Below are positions 14,927 to 44,382 of a DNA stretch of 53,423 nt, one piece after another (position 1 is the stretch's first letter; each line of letters begins with the position of its first letter). Position numbers and translations under genes: made by a program. Source of the stretch: Candidatus Spyradocola merdavium (lineage in GTDB: Bacteria > Bacillota > Clostridia > Christensenellales > UBA1750); assembly GCA_018711265.1 (NCBI GenBank), contig DVIM01000165.1, positions 1 through 53,423 on the forward strand, in the 5' to 3' direction. The notes under the pieces were generated by a model, which saw nothing but the letters and a program-made list of their open reading frames with translations, was not told where the DNA came from and did not search any database.

Positions 14927-15184
14927 ATGGAATCCCGATGCGGAATCCTTTGCAGCGCGTGTACCTACCGGGAGAAGACGGGCTGCACGGGCTGCCGGAA
15001 CCAGCAGCCGTTCTGGGGCGCGTGCCCGGTCCGGGGCTGCTGCGAGGCGCGCGGCCACGACCACTGCGGCGTTTGCGGAGACTTCGTCTGCAAGCTGCTG
15101 CACAGCTTCGCCTACGACGCGGAGCACGGCGACGGCGCCGGGGCGCGCCTGGAGACCTGCCGCAGGTGGGCAAAGGGCGACTGA
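14927..15184 (+). CDS. DUF3795-like Cys-rich small protein, 85 aa
   Basis: SRCGILCSAC..CTGC..CPVRGCC..HCGVCGDFVC; AAGGAGG RBS. Confidence 0.8.
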   Translation: MESRCGILCSACTYREKTGCTGCRNQQPFWGACPVRGCCEARGHDHCGVCGDFVCKLLHSFAYDAEHGDGAGARLETCRRWAKGD

Positions 15185-36624: not shown

Positions 36625-36652
36625 TTGACAAAATTCCGCCGCCGTGTATAAT
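36625..36652 (+). promoter_or_regulatory. Sigma-A promoter of tRNA-Leu
   Basis: TTGACA-16 nt-TATAAT. Confidence 0.8.
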
Positions 36653-36667
36653 AGATTCTGTTCCTAC

Positions 36668-36750
36668 GCGAGGGTGGCGGAACTGGCAGACGCGCACGTT
36701 TGAGGGGCGTGTGGGCAACCATACGGGTTCAAGTCCCGTCCTTCGCACCA
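36668..36750 (+). tRNA. tRNA-Leu(GAG)
   Basis: GCGAGGGTGGCGGAACTGGCAGACGCG-CACGT TTGAGGG GCGTG-variable arm-ACGGGTTCAAGTCCCGT CCTTCGCACCA. Confidence 0.97.
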
Positions 36751-36843: not shown

Positions 36844-37545
36844 TCAGCGCGCGCCCGCCGGCCGCCTGCGCTGCTCCCCGCGCTGGGCGCACCGCTGCAG
36901 CAGGTACCCGGCGAGGACCCACAGCGCCAGGATGCAGAACAGCTCGCCCAGGACCTGCAGGGCGGACGCCTCGTAATCGAGGAAGGCGAACTCCGTCCGC
37001 AGGAAAAGATAGGAAGGAATTCCCTGGCGCAGGACGCAGAACAGGCCCGCGCCCGCAAGGAGCGCCGCGCCCAGGCGCAGGCCGTTCCGCCCCCACGCGG
37101 GCAGCGGCCGGCCGCGGCGCAGCGCCTTGCGCCCGAGAGACAGGAACGCGCCCCAGTGCGCCCCCAGGTGCAGGCCGACGAGCAGGAGGCTCCAATAGCC
37201 GCAGGCCAGGTGGAGCAGCCGCGCCGCGGACGTGGGCAGCGGCAGGTCGAGGAACGGCAGCGCGCTGCGGGACATGGCGATCCCGCTGACCATCTGCGCC
37301 AGCATGCTCACCAGCACCAGGGCGTCCAGCACCGTGGAGAGGATGCGCGGGGCGGAGTACCGCCCCTTGCCCAGGGCGCGGAACCAGGAGAGGTTCAGCA
37401 GGTGGTGCAGGACGAACAGGGCGAAAAAGCCGATCCCCAGCCACTCGTGGACCGCCTGGTCCGTGAGCACATAGGCCATCAGCAGCAGGAGGGCGGCCGT
37501 CATCAGCAGGTCGACGGCGTGCCGCAGGGCGGGTTTATGCTTCAT
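36844..37545 (-). CDS. DUF4405-like membrane protein with intramembrane His residues, 233 aa
   Basis: VHEWLG, LHHLLN, SGIAMS, LHLACGYW, GLHLGAHW. Confidence 0.8.
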   Translation of the reverse strand: MKHKPALRHAVDLLMTAALLLLMAYVLTDQAVHEWLGIGFFALFVLHHLLNLSWFRALGKGRYSAPRILSTVLDALVLVSMLAQMVSGIAMSRSALPFLDLPLPTSAARLLHLACGYWSLLLVGLHLGAHWGAFLSLGRKALRRGRPLPAWGRNGLRLGAALLAGAGLFCVLRQGIPSYLFLRTEFAFLDYEASALQVLGELFCILALWVLAGYLLQRCAQRGEQRRRPAGAR

Positions 37546-38053
37546 CGCGGCATCCCCCTTCCAGGCGGTCCGGCGCAAGACCGATCTGCGCTAGCCAGCG
37601 GTCGATCGCGGGCCCCGCGGCGGAAACCTCGTCCCCGCGCAGGGAGAGCAGCGGGAGCACCTCGCACCCGGCGCACAGGCGCGCAAGGTCCGCGGCGATG
37701 CGCCCCGCGCCGCCCCCGCCGTGCGTGCAGAAGGGCGCGATGCGCAGGCCCTGCGGCAGGGCTTGGCGCAGGAAGGACTGCAGGGGCGGCGCCATCGTGC
37801 CGCACCAATTCGGCGTGCCCAGAAAGAGCGCCTCGCAGCCGGACAGGTCCAGGGACAGCGGGCGCAGCGCCGGGCAGATGCCCTGGCGGATTTCCCGGCC
37901 GGCCTGGCGGACGGTCTGGGCGTAGTCGGCGGGGTAGGGGGAGACGGGTTCCAGCTCCACAAGGTCCGCCCCCGCCCGCTCGGCGAGCAGGCGCGCGGCC
38001 CGCCGCGTGTTGCCGGACCAGGAGTAGAAGAGGACAAGGCGCGTCTTGTTCAC
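37535..38053 (-). CDS. Flavodoxin, 172 aa
   Basis: FYSWSGNTRRAA, LGTPNWCG, PFCTHGGGG; GTG after AAGGAGG. Confidence 0.88.
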   Translation of the reverse strand: MNKTRLVLFYSWSGNTRRAARLLAERAGADLVELEPVSPYPADYAQTVRQAGREIRQGICPALRPLSLDLSGCEALFLGTPNWCGTMAPPLQSFLRQALPQGLRIAPFCTHGGGGAGRIAADLARLCAGCEVLPLLSLRGDEVSAAGPAIDRWLAQIGLAPDRLEGGCRDEA

Positions 38054-38172: not shown

Positions 38173-39411
38173 TCAGGCGCGCGTCTTGCAGGACGAGCAC
38201 TTGCCGGAGCAGGCCCAGAGCGCGTCCGCCACCGGCGCCCAGTTTTCCGCCGCGCGCTCGCACTTTCCGGCGAGCGCGTCGACATCCTCCGGGCTCTCCA
38301 GGTCCGTGGAGTGCGCGCCGGTGGCGTGCACCATGGATTGCAGCGCGCGCGGGTTGTCCAGGAGCGGACAGGGGCGCAAGGGGTTGTCGTTGAGAGGCTG
38401 GCCCGCGTGGTAGGCGCGGAACAGCGGCGACTGCAGCGCCTCGAGAATCGTCTTGTCCCGGATGTTGGAGTCCGAGTAGTGGATGAAGGCGCAGGGCTCG
38501 ATGTCGCCGTTGGCGTTGATGTGCAGGTAGCGCCGTCCGCCCGCGACGCAGCCGCCCGCGTACTCGCCGTCGTTCCAGAAGTCCATGGTGAAGATGGGCT
38601 TTGCGGCGCGGAACGCGCGCACCTGCTCGTACAGGAAGCGGCGCTGCTCGGGCGTGACCATCAGGTCCGGCACCGCGTCGCTGCCCACGGGCATGTAGGT
38701 GAAGAACCAGCAGAACTTCGCGCCCCAGGCGATCATCTGGTCAAAGTACGCCTCGCTGCCGATGACCTCCACGTTTTGACGGGTGTAGCAGCAGGAGATG
38801 CCAAAGGGCAGCTTCCGCTCGCGCAGCAGAGCCATGGCGCGCTCCACGCGGCGGAACGTGCCCGCGCCGCGGCGGGAATCCGTCGCCTCCTCAAAGCCCT
38901 CGACGGAGATGGCGGGGAGGAAGTTCTTGACGCGCAGCATCTCGTCGGCAAAGGCCTCGTCGATGAGGGTGCCGTTGGTGAAGGCGGAAAACTCGCAGTC
39001 CGGGTGCGCCTGGCAGAGGCGCAGGATGTCCGCCTTGCGCACGAGCGGCTCGCCGCCGGAGAAGAGGTAGAAGTGGATGCCCAGCTCCCTGCCCTGGCGG
39101 AGGATGTCCTCCAGCTCCGCATAGCTGAGATTGAGCCGATTGCCGTACTCCGCCGCCCAGCAGCCTGTGCAGTGTAGGTTGCAGGCGGAGGTGGGGTCGA
39201 TGAGCATCGTCCAGGGGATGTTGCAGTTGTACTTGCGGCGCAGCTCGTCGTTCCGCTCGCTCTGCAGGAACGAGCCGTTCAGGGCGAAGTTCTCAAAGAG
39301 CGCGCGCCGCACGCCGGCGCCGATGCCGTCCCAGAGGCGCAGGACGAAGCGGTTCCAGTTGTTGTCCGGGTCCGCCAGGCCTTCTTTGATGCCCCGGATC
39401 ACCCCGTCCAT
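38173..39411 (-). CDS. Radical SAM enzyme with a SPASM/Twitch-like C-terminus; native N-terminus appears damaged
   Basis: DPTSACNLHCTGCWAAEY (CxxxCxxC), FSGGEP, FTNGT, GCVAGGRRYLHINANGDIEPC; start codon uncertain. Confidence 0.88.
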   Translation of the reverse strand: MDGVIRGIKEGLADPDNNWNRFVLRLWDGIGAGVRRALFENFALNGSFLQSERNDELRRKYNCNIPWTMLIDPTSACNLHCTGCWAAEYGNRLNLSYAELEDILRQGRELGIHFYLFSGGEPLVRKADILRLCQAHPDCEFSAFTNGTLIDEAFADEMLRVKNFLPAISVEGFEEATDSRRGAGTFRRVERAMALLRERKLPFGISCCYTRQNVEVIGSEAYFDQMIAWGAKFCWFFTYMPVGSDAVPDLMVTPEQRRFLYEQVRAFRAAKPIFTMDFWNDGEYAGGCVAGGRRYLHINANGDIEPCAFIHYSDSNIRDKTILEALQSPLFRAYHAGQPLNDNPLRPCPLLDNPRALQSMVHATGAHSTDLESPEDVDALAGKCERAAENWAPVADALWACSGKCSSCKTRA

Positions 39412-39487
39412 GTCGCTCCCCGCGGGTCCTTGTCCACGTAGTCGGATACGGTCCGCAGGCCCGCGGCCCCGCGCGTGCCATGCAGCC

Positions 39488-39546
39488 ATCCTAGGGCGAG
39501 GCCGTTTCCGGTTTGTTTGCATTCTGTTTGGGAAGTGTGAATCCGC
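39488..39546 (-). promoter_or_regulatory. Phased-repeat promoter 1 (radical SAM gene)
   Basis: Minus strand TTCAC-6-CAAAC-6-CAAAC-6-GAAAC-10-TAGGAT. Confidence 0.7.
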
Positions 39547-39558
39547 GGGAGCTGTGCA

Positions 39559-39612
39559 TTCATTCCCCGCAAACCCTTTGGCAATCCAATCGAAACAAAC
39601 CCCGTCTATACT
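39559..39612 (+). promoter_or_regulatory. Phased-repeat promoter 2 (secreted-protein gene)
   Basis: TTCAT-6-CAAAC-6-GCAAT-6-GAAAC-10-TATACT. Confidence 0.7.
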
Positions 39613-39687
39613 TGCAGGCGTCGTCGGGAGCGGCAGGGCCTGTGCAGCGCCCGCGGCCCGAAATCTGCGAATGCAAGGAGGAAAAAC

Positions 39688-40164
39688 ATGAAGAACCCCT
39701 GGAGGACCGCCATCTGCGCGCTGCTCCTATGCGGAGCCTTTGCCCTGGGCGGCCTCCCCGCGCAGGCCGCCGGGGCCGCACCGGCCATGGAGGCCGCACC
39801 GGCCTCGGGGGCCGCTGCGGTCCCTGCGGAAATCACCTGGCCTGCGCACTACCGGATGTACCGCCGCGGCCTGGACGGCGCGCAGCGGGCCGCGCCCCGG
39901 CTGCGGGAGCGGGCCCAGTGCGTGGGCGAGCAGGAGGTCGCCGGCCGGACCGGCCTGGTCTATACCTGCGCGCGCAGCTTCCTGGGCTTCACCTGGACGC
40001 GCACGATGATCGTCGACGAGCAGACGGGCCTGTGCCTGGCCTGGCGCGCGCAGAGCGCAATCGGCGACTACAGCCTCTCCGACGGCGCGGGCGACTTCCT
40101 CTGCACGGACTTTGTGACGCAGGACGTCGCGCTGCCCTTGTCCCTGGAGGGACAGACCGCGTAG
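39688..40164 (+). CDS. Hypothetical secreted protein, 158 aa
   Basis: AAGGAGG RBS; signal peptide ending AQA; beta-rich GEQEVAGRTG..MIVDEQTGLCL (LolA-like pattern, tentative). Confidence 0.7.
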   Translation: MKNPWRTAICALLLCGAFALGGLPAQAAGAAPAMEAAPASGAAAVPAEITWPAHYRMYRRGLDGAQRAAPRLRERAQCVGEQEVAGRTGLVYTCARSFLGFTWTRTMIVDEQTGLCLAWRAQSAIGDYSLSDGAGDFLCTDFVTQDVALPLSLEGQTA

Positions 40165-40175
40165 GGCGCGGCGGA

Positions 40176-40229
40176 TTCACAATTCGCAAACAAAACCGCA
40201 GGGATTCGCAAACCCTCGCGGCGCAGAAT
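40176..40229 (+). promoter_or_regulatory. Phased-repeat promoter 3 (79-aa gene)
   Basis: TTCAC-6-CAAAC-6-gcagg-6-CAAAC-10-CAGAAT. Confidence 0.7.
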
Positions 40230-40264
40230 TCCAGAAGACCGAGAACGGAAAGGAGCAAACCAAA

Positions 40265-40504
40265 ATGTCTTTTGAAACCTGGAAGCGCACGAACGAGAAG
40301 ATCGAAAAGAAGGTCGTGGACGGATACAAGAAGATCGAGGACACCGTGGTCGGCGGGTTTGAAAAGGTGAGCGACGGCTTTGTGGAGCGCCTCTTTGCCC
40401 GCGAGGGCGAGAGCGTCGGGCAGGCCAAGGAGCGCCTGGCCAGGCAGGCGGCCGCCCAGCGCGGCGCAGATCCCGTGGGGAAGAAACCGGGGGACGCGCT
40501 TTAA
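40265..40504 (+). CDS. Small protein with 11-residue amphipathic repeats, 79 aa
   Basis: AAGGAG RBS; KIEKKVVDGYK/KIEDTVVGGFE/KVSDGFVERLF. Confidence 0.8.
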   Translation: MSFETWKRTNEKIEKKVVDGYKKIEDTVVGGFEKVSDGFVERLFAREGESVGQAKERLARQAAAQRGADPVGKKPGDAL

Positions 40505-40554
40505 CAAAACAGAAACAAATCTCCAACATACCGCAAACGAAGCGCCGGTATACT
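40501..40554 (+). promoter_or_regulatory. Phased-repeat promoter 4 (two-component operon, autoregulatory position)
   Basis: TTAAC-6-GAAAC-6-CCAAC-6-CAAAC-10-TATACT. Confidence 0.7.
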
Positions 40555-40583
40555 GGCCGTGCATCGCAGGGGGAGGAGAGAGC

Positions 40584-41255
40584 ATGATTCACATTCTGGT
40601 CGTGGACGACGATCCGGAGCTGAACCGGGCGGTCTGCACATATCTGAACGACTCCGGCTTTACGGCGACCGGCTGCCTCGGGGGCAACGACGCCTGCCAG
40701 GAGATGTACAATAAGCACTACGACCTGATCATCTCAGACATCATGATGCCGGGCGTGGACGGGTTCGAATTTGCGCGCGCGGTGCGGCGGGTGAACGGGC
40801 ACATCCCGATCCTGTTCATGTCCGCGCGCGACGACATGCCCGCCAAGCGCCGCGGCTTTCAGCTGGGCATTGACGACTACATGGTCAAGCCCATCGAGCT
40901 GGACGAGCTGCTCATGCGCGTGCGCGCGCTGCTGCGCCGGGCCAACATCGAGGCCACGCACAAGCTGACCCACGGCAACCTGGTCCTGGACGCGGACGCC
41001 GTCTCCGCCGTGGTGGACGGCCGGGAGGTGCCCGTGACCATGCGGGAGTTCAACATCCTGTTCAAGCTCCTCTCCTATCCGAACAAGACCTTCACCCGGG
41101 CCCAGCTGATGGACGAGTTCTGGGGCATGGAGAGCGAGAGCACGCTGCGGGCGGTGGACGTCTACATCACCAAGCTGCGCGACAAGTTCTCCGGGTGCAC
41201 GGGCTTTTCGATCGCGACGGTCCGCGGCCTGGGCTACAAGGCGGTGCTCAAATGA
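40584..41255 (+). CDS. OmpR-family response regulator (HssR-like), 223 aa
   Basis: LVVDDD, SDIMMPGVDG, DDYMVKP, LLSYPNKTFTRAQL, VDVYITKLR, TVRGLGYK. Confidence 0.93.
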   Translation: MIHILVVDDDPELNRAVCTYLNDSGFTATGCLGGNDACQEMYNKHYDLIISDIMMPGVDGFEFARAVRRVNGHIPILFMSARDDMPAKRRGFQLGIDDYMVKPIELDELLMRVRALLRRANIEATHKLTHGNLVLDADAVSAVVDGREVPVTMREFNILFKLLSYPNKTFTRAQLMDEFWGMESESTLRAVDVYITKLRDKFSGCTGFSIATVRGLGYKAVLK

Positions 41256-42322
41256 GTCCGCTGCCCAAGTACTTTGACGGCATCCGCCTGCCACGGTACG
41301 TGTTCTTCCTCTCGCTGGGGTGCCTGATGCTCTTCAGCGGCGTGCACGTGGGGCTGATCCTGCTGCTCTACCGGCTGGGGTGCAGCGACATCGTGCTGGT
41401 GCACCTGGTGCTGCTGTACTGGGTGCTCGTGACTGTGGGCCTTACGAAGTACATCCAGTGGTATACGCGCAGGTTCTACGAGAAGCCCATCCGCCGCATC
41501 GCCGAGGCCGCGGGCAAGGTCGCGGGCGGGGACTTTTCCGTCTACCTTCCGCCCGTGCACACGCCGGACCACCTGGACTGCCTGGACGCCCTGACGGAGG
41601 ACTTCAACCGCATGGTCGAGGCGCTCGGCTCCATCGAGACGCTCAAGACCGAGTTCTTCTCCAACGTCTCCCACGAGATCAAGACGCCCATCGCGGTGAT
41701 CCTGAACACCGCGGAGCTCCTGCGCGGGGCGGACCTTGGCGCGCCGGAGAGCCAGGAACACGTCGAAACGATCCTCCGCGCCTCCAAGCGCCTGTCCACG
41801 CTGATCACGGACATCCTCAAGCTCAACAAGCTGGAAAAGCAGACCATCTCCCCCCAGCCCGAGGCGTACGACCTGTGCGCGCAGCTTTGCGAGTGCGCGT
41901 TGCAGTTCGAGGACCTGTGGGAGAAGAAGGGCGTCGAGTTCGAGGCGGATTTGGAGGACGAGCGGCCGGTGCGCCTGGACGCGGGGCTGATGGAGCTGGT
42001 GTGGACAAACCTGCTCTCCAACGCGTTCAAGTTCACGCCGCCGGGCGGAACCGTGACCCTCGCCGAGCGCAGGACGGAGGAAGGCGTCGTCGTGCGCGTT
42101 TCGGACACGGGCTGCGGCATGGACGCGGAAACCGCCGCGCGCGTGTTTGAGAAGTTCTACCAGGGCGACACCTCCCACGCCACCGAGGGCAACGGCCTGG
42201 GGCTCGCGCTGGTCAAGCGCGCGCTGGAGATGATGGACTGCACCGTCGCCGTGCAGAGCGCGCCGGGCGAGGGCACGACCTTTGCGGTGACCATTCCGGC
42301 AGAAGAAAGGGAAATGACATGA
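41252..42322 (+). CDS. HAMP sensor histidine kinase with two closely spaced TMs (intramembrane-sensing type), 356 aa
   Basis: NVSHEIKTP, NLLSNAFKF, DTGCGM, FYQGD..GNGLGLA; very short loop between the TMs. Confidence 0.92.
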   Translation: MSPLPKYFDGIRLPRYVFFLSLGCLMLFSGVHVGLILLLYRLGCSDIVLVHLVLLYWVLVTVGLTKYIQWYTRRFYEKPIRRIAEAAGKVAGGDFSVYLPPVHTPDHLDCLDALTEDFNRMVEALGSIETLKTEFFSNVSHEIKTPIAVILNTAELLRGADLGAPESQEHVETILRASKRLSTLITDILKLNKLEKQTISPQPEAYDLCAQLCECALQFEDLWEKKGVEFEADLEDERPVRLDAGLMELVWTNLLSNAFKFTPPGGTVTLAERRTEEGVVVRVSDTGCGMDAETAARVFEKFYQGDTSHATEGNGLGLALVKRALEMMDCTVAVQSAPGEGTTFAVTIPAEEREMT

Positions 42323-42843
42323 TGCAAACGGGAAAAACGCCCTTTGTTTCCTTCGACTATAAAGAGGCCGCGGTGGAGCGCGAGCGCCTGTCGCAGGCCC
42401 TGGACGGCTATGCCTGCTTGGGCTGGGAGCTGGACCGGCAGGAGGGCGCGGGCGGGCAGATCCGCCTCTTCCTGCGGCGGGACCGGCACATCCTCAACAA
42501 GGCGGAGCTGACGCGGCTGGAGCGGCAGTTCGAGGCCTGTCTGGACGCAATCCGCGCGCTGGAGGCCTCGGTCGCCCAGCGGGCGGCGATGGCCGCGCTG
42601 GCCGTGGGGCTCGCGGGCACGGTCTTTCTTGCGGGCGCGACGTTTGCGGTCACGGCGGCGACGCCGGCCGTCTGGCTCTGCGCGGTGCTCGCCGTCCCCG
42701 GGTTCCTCGGCTGGGGCGGCGCGTATCCGGTGTACCGGCGCGTGCGCACGCTGCGCGCGCGGCAGGTGGAGCCGCTGATCGAGGGCAAGCGCGACGAGAT
42801 CGAGGCGGTCTGCAAAAAGGGCGTCCGGATGCGGAGCGAGTGA
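42319..42843 (+). CDS. Hypothetical 2-TM membrane protein, coupled to the kinase gene
   Basis: ATGA overlap; DGYACLGW, RDRHILNKAELTRLER, two TM helices. Confidence 0.8.
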   Translation: MMQTGKTPFVSFDYKEAAVERERLSQALDGYACLGWELDRQEGAGGQIRLFLRRDRHILNKAELTRLERQFEACLDAIRALEASVAQRAAMAALAVGLAGTVFLAGATFAVTAATPAVWLCAVLAVPGFLGWGGAYPVYRRVRTLRARQVEPLIEGKRDEIEAVCKKGVRMRSE

Positions 42844-42859: not shown

Positions 42860-42894
42860 AAGGAGAGGGGGAGAGAATCCCCCTCTCCTTTTTT
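42860..42894 (+). terminator. Intrinsic terminator
   Basis: AAGGAGAGGGGGA-gagaa-TCCCCTCTCCTT-TTTT. Confidence 0.8.
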
Positions 42895-43005: not shown

Positions 43006-44382
43006 ATGGAAGACCAACAAAAAATTGACCTGTTTGAAAAGCTGCCGGTGCCGCGGGCGGTGATGAAGCTGGCCGTGCCCACCATCCTCAGCTCCCTGGT
43101 CATGGTGCTCTACAACCTGGCGGACACCTACTTTGTCGGGATGCTCAACGACCCCATCCAGAACGCCGGCGTGGCGCTGGCCGCGCCGGTGCTGCTGGCC
43201 TTCAACGCGATCAACAACCTGTTCGGCGTGGGCTCTTCGAGCATGATGAGCCGGGCCCTGGGCCGCAGGGACTACGAGACGGTCTACAAGAGCTCGGCCT
43301 TCGGGTTCTACAGCTCCATCCTGTGCGGGCTGCTGTTTTCGCTGCTGTGCACGGTGTTTGCCGGGCCCCTGCTCGGGCTGCTCGGCGCGGACGAGACCAC
43401 CTACGACGCGACGATGGGCTACATGTTCTGGACGGTGAACCTGGGCGCGATGCCGGCGATCCTGAACGTGGTCATGGCCTACCTCGTGCGCGCGGAGGGC
43501 GCCTCCCTCCACGCGAGCCTGGGCACGATGAGCGGCTGTCTGCTCAACATCGCGCTGGACCCCATCTTCATCCTGCCCTGGGGCTTTGACATGGGCGCGG
43601 CGGGCGCGGGCCTGGCGACGTTCCTGTCCAACTGCGTGGCCTGCCTGTACTTCTTCGTGCTGCTCTACGTCAAGCGCGGGCGCACCTACGTCAGCATCCA
43701 CCCCAAGATGTACCGCTGGAAGAAGGAGATCGTCCTGGGGGTCTTCGGGGTGGGCGTCCCCGCCTCGATCCAGAACCTGCTCAACGTCACCGGCATGACG
43801 GTGCTCAACAACTTCACCGCGGCCTACGGCGCCAACGCGGTCGCGGCCATGGGCATCGCGCAGAAGATCAACCAGGTGCCCATGCAGATCTCCATGGGCG
43901 TGTCCCAGGGCATCATGCCGCTCATCAGCTACAACTACGCCAGCCGCAACGTGTCCCGCATGAAGGGGACGCTGCTCTTTACGGTCAAGATCGCGCTGTC
44001 CTTCATGGTGGTGGTGGCGCTGGGCTACTTCTTCTTCGCGGGTCCGCTGACGGAGATGTTCATGTCCAACCCGGACGTCGTCGCCTATGGCGCGGCGTTC
44101 CTGCGCGGGTTCTGCCTGGGCCTGCCCTTCCTGTGCATGGACTTCATCGCCGTGGGCGTGTTCCAGGCCACGGGCCTGGGGCGCAACGCGCTGATCTTCG
44201 CGATCCTGCGCAAGATCGTGCTGGAGATCCCCGCGCTGTTCGTGCTGAACTGGCTCTTCCCGCTCTATGGACTGGCGTACGCGCAGTTTACGGCGGAGAT
44301 CCTCCTGGCCGTGGCCGCGGTGCTGGTGCTGCGCCGCCTGTTCCGCGACCTGGAGAGAGGGCACGCCCCGGCGGGCGCGTGA
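43006..44382 (+). CDS. MATE family efflux transporter
   Basis: LAVPTI..YNLADTYFVG, RAEG, NIALDPIFI, QGIMPLISYNY. Confidence 0.92.
   Translation: MEDQQKIDLFEKLPVPRAVMKLAVPTILSSLVMVLYNLADTYFVGMLNDPIQNAGVALAAPVLLAFNAINNLFGVGSSSMMSRALGRRDYETVYKSSAFGFYSSILCGLLFSLLCTVFAGPLLGLLGADETTYDATMGYMFWTVNLGAMPAILNVVMAYLVRAEGASLHASLGTMSGCLLNIALDPIFILPWGFDMGAAGAGLATFLSNCVACLYFFVLLYVKRGRTYVSIHPKMYRWKKEIVLGVFGVGVPASIQNLLNVTGMTVLNNFTAAYGANAVAAMGIAQKINQVPMQISMGVSQGIMPLISYNYASRNVSRMKGTLLFTVKIALSFMVVVALGYFFFAGPLTEMFMSNPDVVAYGAAFLRGFCLGLPFLCMDFIAVGVFQATGLGRNALIFAILRKIVLEIPALFVLNWLFPLYGLAYAQFTAEILLAVAAVLVLRRLFRDLERGHAPAGA

Follow-up and report, generated by a model that had tools for sequence, protein, structure and literature searches.

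A predicted two-component regulon of small membrane and envelope proteins, marked by four operator-promoters of 11-bp direct repeats, in Candidatus Spyradocola merdavium

The window analysed here is the whole of the 53,423-nt contig DVIM01000165.1 from Candidatus Spyradocola merdavium (GenBank assembly GCA_018711265.1; 2,526,828 bp, 66% G+C; referred to as G000), and the subject is a two-component system encoded on it together with four similarly built promoters. Nine genes between positions 36844 and 44382 were scanned against Pfam and NCBIfam. At the centre lies a plus-strand operon comprised of a 223-amino-acid (aa) response regulator of the OmpR/PhoB family (40584-41255; Pfam Response_reg, PF00072, 8.5e-27; Trans_reg_C, PF00486, 1.3e-18), a 356-aa histidine kinase (41252-42322; HAMP, HisKA and HATPase domains by Pfam, and hydropathy) and a 174-aa protein of no Pfam or NCBIfam family (42319-42843). 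The start-stop overlaps of regulator with kinase and of kinase with the 174-aa gene are both ATGA, and a terminator-like hairpin with a T run (42867-42884, +) ends the operon. Upstream on the same strand are the genes of a 79-aa repeat protein (40265-40504) and of a 158-aa secreted protein (39688-40164), neither with a Pfam or NCBIfam family, and divergent from these is the gene of a 412-aa radical SAM/SPASM enzyme (38173-39411, -; Pfam Radical_SAM 2.4e-19; SPASM 25.1 bits against a cut-off of 21.5). The reading favoured here, at a probability of roughly three in four, is that the four sites serve the adjacent OmpR/PhoB-type regulator as operator-promoters, through which it would activate its own operon and a small, mostly local set of envelope and membrane genes.

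The predicted operator-promoter of the radical SAM gene lies on the minus strand (39488-39544) and consists of the boxes TTCAC, CAAAC, CAAAC and GAAAC, an interval of N10 and the -10 hexamer TAGGAT (39488-39493), with the start codon 76 nt further. Back to back with it is the predicted site of the secreted-protein gene (39556-39612, +; TTCAT, CAAAC, GCAAT, GAAAC; -10 TATACT at 39607-39612), the weakest of the four. The predicted site of the 79-aa gene follows (40173-40229, +; TTCAC, CAAAC, GCAGG, CAAAC; -10 CAGAAT at 40224-40229; start codon 35 nt further), and then that of the regulator-kinase-174-aa operon (40498-40554, +; TTAAC, GAAAC, CCAAC, CAAAC; -10 TATACT at 40549-40554; start codon 29 nt further). 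The common layout given in the original prediction, TT(C/A)A(C/T)-N6-(C/G)AAAC-N6-box 3-N6-(C/G)AAAC-N10 followed by TAGGAT, TATACT, CAGAAT or TATACT, is thus borne out, as are two further details: a longer string, GCGGATTCACA, is common to the radical SAM and 79-aa sites, and a consensus -35 is absent, given that a sigma-70 scan accepting at least 4/6 positions per hexamer matches none of the four.

The regulator joins a receiver domain to a C-terminal winged-helix Trans_reg_C domain, the composition of the OmpR/PhoB family, and is not a PhoB equivalog (NF053854, 167.9 against a cut-off of 270; TIGR02154, 152.6 against 296.2). All NCBIfam equivalogs score below their cut-offs for this protein, and its best matches in NCBIfam and the Protein Data Bank (PDB) are PhoB, MtrA, DrrD and PrrA, typical of a generic family member; the resemblance to HssR that had been proposed for it finds no specific support. 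The kinase fits its earlier description as a protein with almost no extracellular loop. A hydropathy scan places its hydrophobic region at about residues 16-66, with helices at about 16-39 and 47-66 and a break at about 40-46, and these two helices, joined by an outer loop of fewer than 10 residues, are followed in Pfam only by the HAMP, HisKA and HATPase domains, which is the architecture of intramembrane-sensing kinases. In the 174-aa protein, an N-terminal domain in the cytoplasm is followed by a hydrophobic hairpin (residues 93-135) and then by a helix at the C-terminus; the protein may represent an accessory sensor subunit. A complex prediction between kinase residues 1-130 and the 174-aa protein reached a best score of 0.20 against a mark of 0.32, a value that says nothing either way.

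The full box pattern is unique to the locus. The pattern TTMAY-N6-SAAAC-N17-SAAAC occurs four times in the window, compared to no occurrence in 100 dinucleotide shuffles, and its four matches in the whole genome all fall at the locus; half patterns are enriched there as well, with four of the 13 genome matches for boxes 1-2 and four of the 18 for boxes 2-4. When G000 and a reversed control are scanned with a matrix derived from 96 sites found in other genomes, the window sites rank first to fourth genome-wide, at 61.8 bits for the regulator site, 38.2 for the radical SAM site, 35.7 for the 79-aa site and 19.2 for the secreted-protein site. That the regulator operon bears the best-scoring site of the genome is consistent with the autoregulation postulated earlier. 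Four promoters may be too few to define the regulon, as a weak fifth site may exist elsewhere.

The fifth-best match of this matrix (17.5 bits) lies on contig C19 of G000 at about 15117-15173 on the minus strand, with a good box 1, box 4 and -10 and degenerate boxes 2 and 3, just 5' of a CmpB-like (PF06541-type) membrane protein gene; the same protein family stands behind strong sites in two loci of other genomes (L064, L076). The gene is a possible fifth member of the regulon.

Among the 20 genomes of the family, G000 included, orthologues of the kinase were found only in G014 and G007. The G014 site (contig C124) closely resembles the regulator site of the window and stands ahead of an operon that encodes a 311-aa multi-spanning protein together with the regulator, kinase and 174-aa protein; for a second strict match in this genome, on contig C18, orthology was not confirmed. 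In G007, which belongs to another genus, one site precedes radical SAM, membrane-protein, regulator and kinase genes, and a second precedes two repeat proteins and a 174-aa homologue. A further genome, G015 (L049, contig C162, 6699-7456), displays a good site with the same CAGAAT before the genes of a protein with four transmembrane (TM) segments and of an 85-aa repeat protein. Searched over 400 genomes of the order, the strict pattern gave 29 matches in 27 genomes compared to 39 reversed-control matches in 36 genomes (hand count), and by itself is therefore not diagnostic outside the lineage; only the matches on G014 C124 and in G015 proved orthologous. The weight of the argument rests on matrix tests at independently chosen loci, not on the strict pattern.

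The motif played no part in the choice of these loci. With three 174-aa proteins aligned as the query, 142 relatives were retrieved from contigs representing one genome per species; the best 80 loci were kept, and gene types were counted within 8 kb of the 174-aa homologue. They derive from Christensenellales-like metagenome-assembled genomes (MAGs; 66-71% identity), Lachnospiraceae and Oscillospiraceae, with Hungatella, Enterocloster, Robinsoniella, Faecalicatena, Murimonas, Sedimentibacter, Caproiciproducens and an Enterococcus as cultured carriers; Hungatella hathewayi, Enterocloster bolteae, Robinsoniella peoriensis and Faecalicatena contorta are among the species represented. A kinase orthologue is present in 74 of the 80 loci and a regulator of 65-90% identity (median 73%) in 72, a degree of conservation that fits a conserved DNA specificity, while both occur together in 71. 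An approximately 300-aa membrane protein is found in 46 loci, the repeat protein in 36, the radical SAM enzyme in five and a relative of the secreted protein in two. A 57-nt matrix made from the four window sites and four sites of G014, G007 and G015 finds 142 matches of at least 8 bits in 71 of the 80 loci and none in the same sequences reversed. The motif anticipated at orthologous promoters is thus present there, with empty controls, and 116 of the 117 sites of at least 15 bits lie on the strand of the operon.

The consensus of the 96 sites reads ATTAAyAwTTCn-CAAACAAwwCn-CAAACAAwnCn-CAAACAAw, followed by about six unconserved positions with a weak preference for G and by TAnnnT. It resolves into four tandem direct repeats of 11 bp, the first TTAAY-like and the second to fourth CAAACA-like. 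The box described as variable in the original prediction is accordingly in its proper place, and is not free sequence: across the 96 sites it emerges as a degenerate third copy of the CAAAC repeat. The spacing to the promoter is just as regular. A matrix of the boxes alone, bearing no -10 information, finds 139 sites compared to five control positions, and a TAnnnT hexamer is separated from box 4 by exactly 10 nt in 124 of the 139, with no other offset above 23. Direct repeats set one helical turn apart, abutting the -10 and standing in place of a -35, make up the class II (PhoB-type) promoter layout.

This geometry also bears on whether the adjacent regulator, having bound the boxes, might repress rather than activate, with polymerase blocked at the -35 region and the response taking the form of de-repression. 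The repeats do cover the place where a -35 would lie, and OmpR-family regulators can repress from positions that overlap the -35. With no usable -35 at any of the four promoters, however, these should be weak without an activator, and the strict 10-nt register to the -10 is something that polymerase contact requires and simple occlusion does not, which leaves repression an unlikely mode of action here.

Another possibility is that the repeats are read by a factor encoded elsewhere, such as another OmpR-type regulator or an alternative sigma factor, and that the neighbouring system is only one of its targets. Many further kinase-like genes exist in the genome, with 22 candidates scored in G000 in the family kinase search, and G015 keeps its site where the cognate kinase and 174-aa protein were not found. 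Against this stands the co-occurrence of motif and cassette in 71 of 80 loci from many families, and the strict 54-nt pattern, applied to five whole genomes that hold the system, gives 16 matches compared to none in the control, 15 of which cluster in contigs or regions bearing a copy of the cassette. Boxes 3 and 4, moreover, end 21 and 10 nt before the -10 and so misfit the spacing of 16-18 nt that a sigma factor would require. A remote reader of the boxes is improbable on these grounds, and the adjacent regulator is the most likely binder because the sites adjoin it, cluster around copies of its cassette and accompany a highly conserved protein. The earlier assignment of the boxes as the operator of this regulator-kinase pair thereby gains comparative backing from the cassette, the operon strand and the fixed 10-nt distance. 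That the likeness of the promoters merely reflects recent local duplication of one segment, as the 11-nt string common to two sites and reaching upstream of box 1 might suggest, is contradicted by the comparative data and highly implausible, given that the spacers differ at all four window sites while box positions and -10 distance are kept and that the same architecture, with a position-specific conservation profile, stands before orthologous genes in distant families.

Several observations weigh against the favoured reading. With the cross-genome matrix, the best reversed control (20.5 bits) is on a level with the secreted-protein site, which is therefore marginal on its own and precedes a decayed gene. 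In G015, which is 93% complete, a good site is present and yet neither the kinase nor the 174-aa protein was found, so that the site is either an orphan operator or lies beside an assembly gap. In nine of the 80 loci no match reaches 8 bits. Autoregulation is not universal: of the 72 loci with a regulator, 43 have a site scoring 15 bits or more on the same strand and no further than 2.5 kb upstream of its gene, and eight of the other 29 are truncated by the end of a contig. Since the matrices go back to the four sites of the original prediction, they are in this respect not fully independent, the loci and reversed controls being so. Lastly, the link between the boxes and the two-component system is drawn by comparison of sequences, and the stimulus is surmised purely from gene content.

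The genes behind the sites are chiefly of the membrane and envelope, in line with the output set first proposed. The first open reading frame (ORF) behind each of the 117 sites of at least 15 bits was classed against reference proteins, using an ORF caller that is crude, especially at high G+C. It was the repeat protein at 20 sites, the approximately 300-aa membrane protein at 18, the regulator and a 174-aa-like protein at 13 each, a secreted-protein relative at one and another ORF at 51, with no called ORF at one. The 51 other ORFs include 2-TM proteins of 96-121 aa and 4-TM proteins of about 122 aa, and single-linkage clustering by BLAST joins nine short 2-TM and eight 4-TM proteins with 13 174-aa-like proteins in a cluster of 30; its links are weak (six between 174-aa-like and short 2-TM proteins, 37 between short 2-TM and 4-TM proteins), and the composition of membrane segments may contribute to them. 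Further genes behind sites are four NAD-epimerase-like genes, two encoding CmpB-like membrane proteins, a cardiolipin-synthase-like gene and a short-chain dehydrogenase, and the occasional outputs comprise the LolA-like lipoprotein, the cardiolipin-synthase-like gene and the radical SAM enzyme. No Pfam model matches any of the core families behind the sites, and the Atlas gives only 'hypothetical' or generic names, with all of its clusters of the 174-aa protein labelled 'hypothetical'.

One Oscillospiraceae MAG (L069; G405, contigs C84 and C303) has an expanded regulon with nine strict-pattern sites, including those before a cardiolipin-synthase-like gene, a LolA-like lipoprotein and several 2-TM proteins, and carries a second copy of the membrane-protein and regulator cassette on another contig.

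The 79-aa protein contains three tandem 11-residue repeats of the type (G/x)YKKIEDxVVx and a charged tail. It belongs to a family in which 128 relatives were found, none of them named, and in which the 11-residue unit recurs two to four times in tandem. At period 11 the autocorrelation is 0.43 compared to about 0.17, and the hydrophobic moment has its maximum at 95-98 degrees per residue, values that fit an amphipathic helix lying on the membrane surface, as the protein presumably forms.

The gene behind the weakest site was earlier described as a secreted beta-protein. The protein is more precisely a LolA-like lipoprotein with internal deletions and without its lipobox Cys: alignment with relatives reveals the in-frame loss of about 45 and 24 residues and a Gly in place of the Cys. 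Full-length relatives have 222-232 aa and a lipobox, the family as a whole ranges from roughly 205 to 250 aa, and its profile finds 283 representatives. Near-identical relatives in metagenomes vary from 157 to 232 aa, a spread that suggests a gene decaying or variable in the species. The model of one full-length relative (P0127; predicted local distance difference test, pLDDT, 87.6) matches RseB (Z 10.9, root-mean-square deviation (rmsd) 5.0, 161 aligned), MucB (10.2), a LolA-like protein (9.8) and LprG (7.6), with a Foldseek E of 1.5e-5. All top matches belong to the LolA/RseB-N/LprG group, whose hallmark is an unclosed beta-barrel with a helical plug, and two of 52 family members give weak Pfam MucB_RseB matches; the family may adopt a LolA/RseB-like fold, about 70 residues of which are missing from the window copy. 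Strain variation touches both this gene and the adjoining site, where contigs from two runs of unrecorded type (X3, X4) lack 18 nt (39792) from the part of the secreted-protein gene that encodes its Ala/Pro-rich leader and feature a 1-nt deletion (40170) just upstream of box 1 of the 79-aa site.

The radical SAM enzyme displays a CxxxCxxC motif (C77, C81 and C84) that is invariant in 13 sequences and places it with the radical SAM enzymes of the SPASM/twitch subclass. Its modelled fold (pLDDT 76.8) appears closest to SPASM peptide and protein maturases, led by SuiB (Z 20.1), SkfB (20.0) and anSME (19.2), with PqqE also among the top matches. As an output of the regulon it has its strong site, as originally proposed, and is only an occasional member given the handful of loci in which it neighbours the cassette. 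Homologues of 61-71% identity occur in nine of 19 family genomes, together with a paralogue in G000, and none has the motif in its 1.5-kb flanks, which suggests a widespread enzyme that only some lineages placed under the regulator. The 71% identical paralogue of G000 (contig C34, 11607-12770, -; L011/L052) lacks a full motif in its flanks and has a MatE gene nearby.

In three of the five cassette loci with a radical SAM gene (L057, L105, L107), a match to the repeat-protein gene begins some 290-360 nt upstream of where the radical SAM gene starts, a layout reminiscent, by analogy, of a precursor and its maturase. A tentative reading of the pair as precursor and maturase of a ribosomally synthesized and post-translationally modified peptide (RiPP) would call for a short precursor gene beside the maturase in most occurrences, and no repeat-protein gene was found beside 10 radical SAM homologue loci outside the cassette. 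A reading as a membrane-spanning lipid synthase (Mss) or tetraether synthase (Tes) is likewise tentative, and the membrane lipid remodelling suggested in the original prediction would be a conjectural role of the system. Published thresholds for homology to a confirmed Mss are E <= 1e-50 and identity >= 30% (PMC13159169), Tes itself is a SPASM enzyme (PMC13459092), and the catalytic architecture of GDGT-MAS is the basis of comparison (PMC13274423). The sequences found by a search of PDB chains at E <= 0.001 are five (two forms of anSME, SuiB and two forms of BlsE). In the fold search, where six SPASM maturases reach Z 18-20, GDGT-MAS (7tom_A; Z 12.8, rmsd 4.1, 241 aligned) comes behind them at rank 12.

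On the minus strand, the radical SAM gene is followed by a flavodoxin gene (37535-38053; Pfam Flavodoxin_4 3.5e-13; start codon read) and by the gene of a DUF4405/cytochrome-b-like membrane protein (36844-37548; Pfam DUF4405 4.2e-13; hydropathy), which overlaps the end of the flavodoxin gene. The flavodoxin and radical SAM genes may share a transcript, yet a promoter-like site (38106-38078) is found in the 119-nt gap between them, so that it is uncertain whether the flavodoxin gene belongs to the regulon; the same holds for the DUF4405 gene, whose membership is uncertain as well. Neither is a conserved neighbour, with flavodoxin near the cassette in one of the 80 loci and DUF4405 in none. The minus-strand group is bounded by a perfect TTGACA-16-TATAAT promoter (36625-36652) directly 5' of a tRNA-Leu(GAG) gene (36668-36750, +). 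At the other end, 3' of the terminator-like hairpin, lies a MatE transporter gene (43006-44382, +; Pfam) with no site 5' of it; a MatE efflux gene recurs beside the cassette in four other loci (L072, L081, L117, L121). In two chicken-gut metatranscriptome runs of one study, contigs cover the radical SAM, regulator, kinase and 174-aa genes in part, and the stretch 39388-39736 is covered too. This material consists of assembled contigs at a depth of roughly 2-13 and without starts or ends, in which DNA carry-over is possible and from which start sites and induction cannot be read.

The sites are present, unique in their genome, conserved, fixed in geometry and accompanied by the cassette; that the regulator binds them and activates rather than represses, that a sensor complex exists and what its signal is are inferences. 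The four repeats imply two dimers, and two phosphorylated regulator dimers would occupy them along one face of the helix, recruiting RNA polymerase in place of the -35 contact by class II activation, with transcription expected to start about 7 nt after each -10. The regulator would be phosphorylated by the co-transcribed kinase, which, having no outer domain, must sense within the membrane or through partners. It would read a signal in or at the membrane, probably with the translationally coupled 174-aa hairpin protein. In most other genomes the operon opens with the gene of an approximately 300-aa multi-spanning protein, which probably takes part in sensing as well. Once stimulated, the system would activate itself and a small, mostly local set of membrane and envelope genes, and the envelope-centred character of these outputs suggests that it serves a cell-envelope or membrane stress response of gut Clostridia.

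A more specific version, offered tentatively and itself rather doubtful, casts the system as a membrane-integrity circuit of anaerobic Bacillota, in which the kinase, the 174-aa protein and the approximately 300-aa protein would read lipid packing or bilayer damage. Its outputs would comprise hairpin proteins for feedback on the sensor or bilayer patching, amphipathic 11-mer-repeat proteins lying on damaged membrane and lineage-specific lipid-handling genes. The hairpin outputs may share the membrane module of the accessory protein, as the weak BLAST links hint, and eukaryotic lipid-binding proteins with 11-mer repeats provide a precedent for amphipathic helices lying on the membrane. The lipid-handling genes would be those of the LolA-like lipoprotein, the cardiolipin synthase and, in this genome, the SPASM radical SAM enzyme, which would act on lipid tails in the manner of Mss/Tes or on the repeat protein.

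Judged by comparative genomics, the activating system favoured here is a real, conserved and as yet uncharacterised two-component regulon of small membrane and envelope proteins, predicted in dozens of other gut Clostridia. Literature searches returned no description of the regulator-kinase-174-aa cassette or its regulon, in keeping with the original prediction of an undescribed system, whose core families also lie outside Pfam. The regulatory principle itself, OmpR-type direct repeats in a class II promoter, is ordinary. Many two-component systems without an assigned role are carried by the gut Clostridia (Lachnospiraceae, Oscillospiraceae and Christensenellales-like lineages, including the cultured Hungatella, Enterocloster and Robinsoniella), among which this one stands out for a clean operator that can be predicted by computer, a highly conserved regulator and a regulon almost entirely without Pfam models. 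It provides an entry point into how these anaerobes sense and repair membrane damage, be it by bile acids, antimicrobial peptides, fatty acids or solvents, and into the roles of widespread small membrane proteins, of 11-residue-repeat proteins and of a widespread SPASM radical SAM enzyme.

At the class II promoters of PhoB and PhoP, the direct repeats bound by dimers of an OmpR-family regulator are spaced by one turn of the helix and lie immediately before the -10, where they substitute for a -35. The system described here resembles the Pho promoters (the pho boxes of E. coli and the four-repeat PhoP core of B. subtilis) in its OmpR-family regulator, in 11-bp direct repeats, four of which correspond to two dimers, in an operator about 10 nt from the -10 that replaces the -35, and in a putatively autoregulated regulator-kinase operon. 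It differs in that the regulator falls well below the PhoB equivalog cut-offs (152.6-167.9 bits compared to 270-296), the repeats have another sequence, the kinase has neither PAS domain nor periplasmic input, and the regulon contains no phosphate genes.

SaePQRS of S. aureus unites an intramembrane kinase, an OmpR-type regulator acting on direct repeats, and genes for an accessory membrane protein and a lipoprotein in an autoregulated operon. The minimal-loop kinase, regulator type, direct repeats and accessory membrane proteins encoded in a seemingly autoregulated operon are all paralleled here, whereas the accessory proteins have no detectable family and the outputs are small membrane proteins instead of secreted virulence factors. 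The LiaFSR-LiaIH and phage-shock-type modules couple an intramembrane kinase and an accessory membrane protein to an autoregulated local regulon of small membrane proteins and a helical protein of the membrane surface. Their likeness extends to the kinase, the accessory protein, the mostly local and probably autoregulated regulon and the small membrane and surface helical proteins, while LiaR is of the NarL type, the regulator described here is of the OmpR type, and Pfam finds no PspA/LiaH or LiaF match. HssRS-HrtAB is similar in its OmpR-type regulator and direct repeats before an adjacent target; unlike that system, the present kinase has almost no outer loop, and Pfam reveals no HrtAB-type or other ABC transporter in the nine genes between 36844 and 44382 to which the scan was confined. 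The same absence of an ABC transporter among these genes distinguishes the locus from a Bce-type module. By the features compared, the system is not a PhoB, Hss, Bce or Lia member.

A clostridial counterpart is RR_1586 of C. difficile, an OmpR-family regulator whose operon also holds hypothetical and lipoprotein genes and for which comparative genomics, together with direct repeats of 11 bp, served to predict a regulon (PMC6222199). The two have in common a clostridial OmpR-family regulator, an operon with hypothetical genes and repeats of 11 bp, whereas RR_1586 is distinguished by a different operon, a TTAAG-type consensus with two repeats compared to the four described here, and predicted targets among transporter and sporulation genes (PMC6222199).

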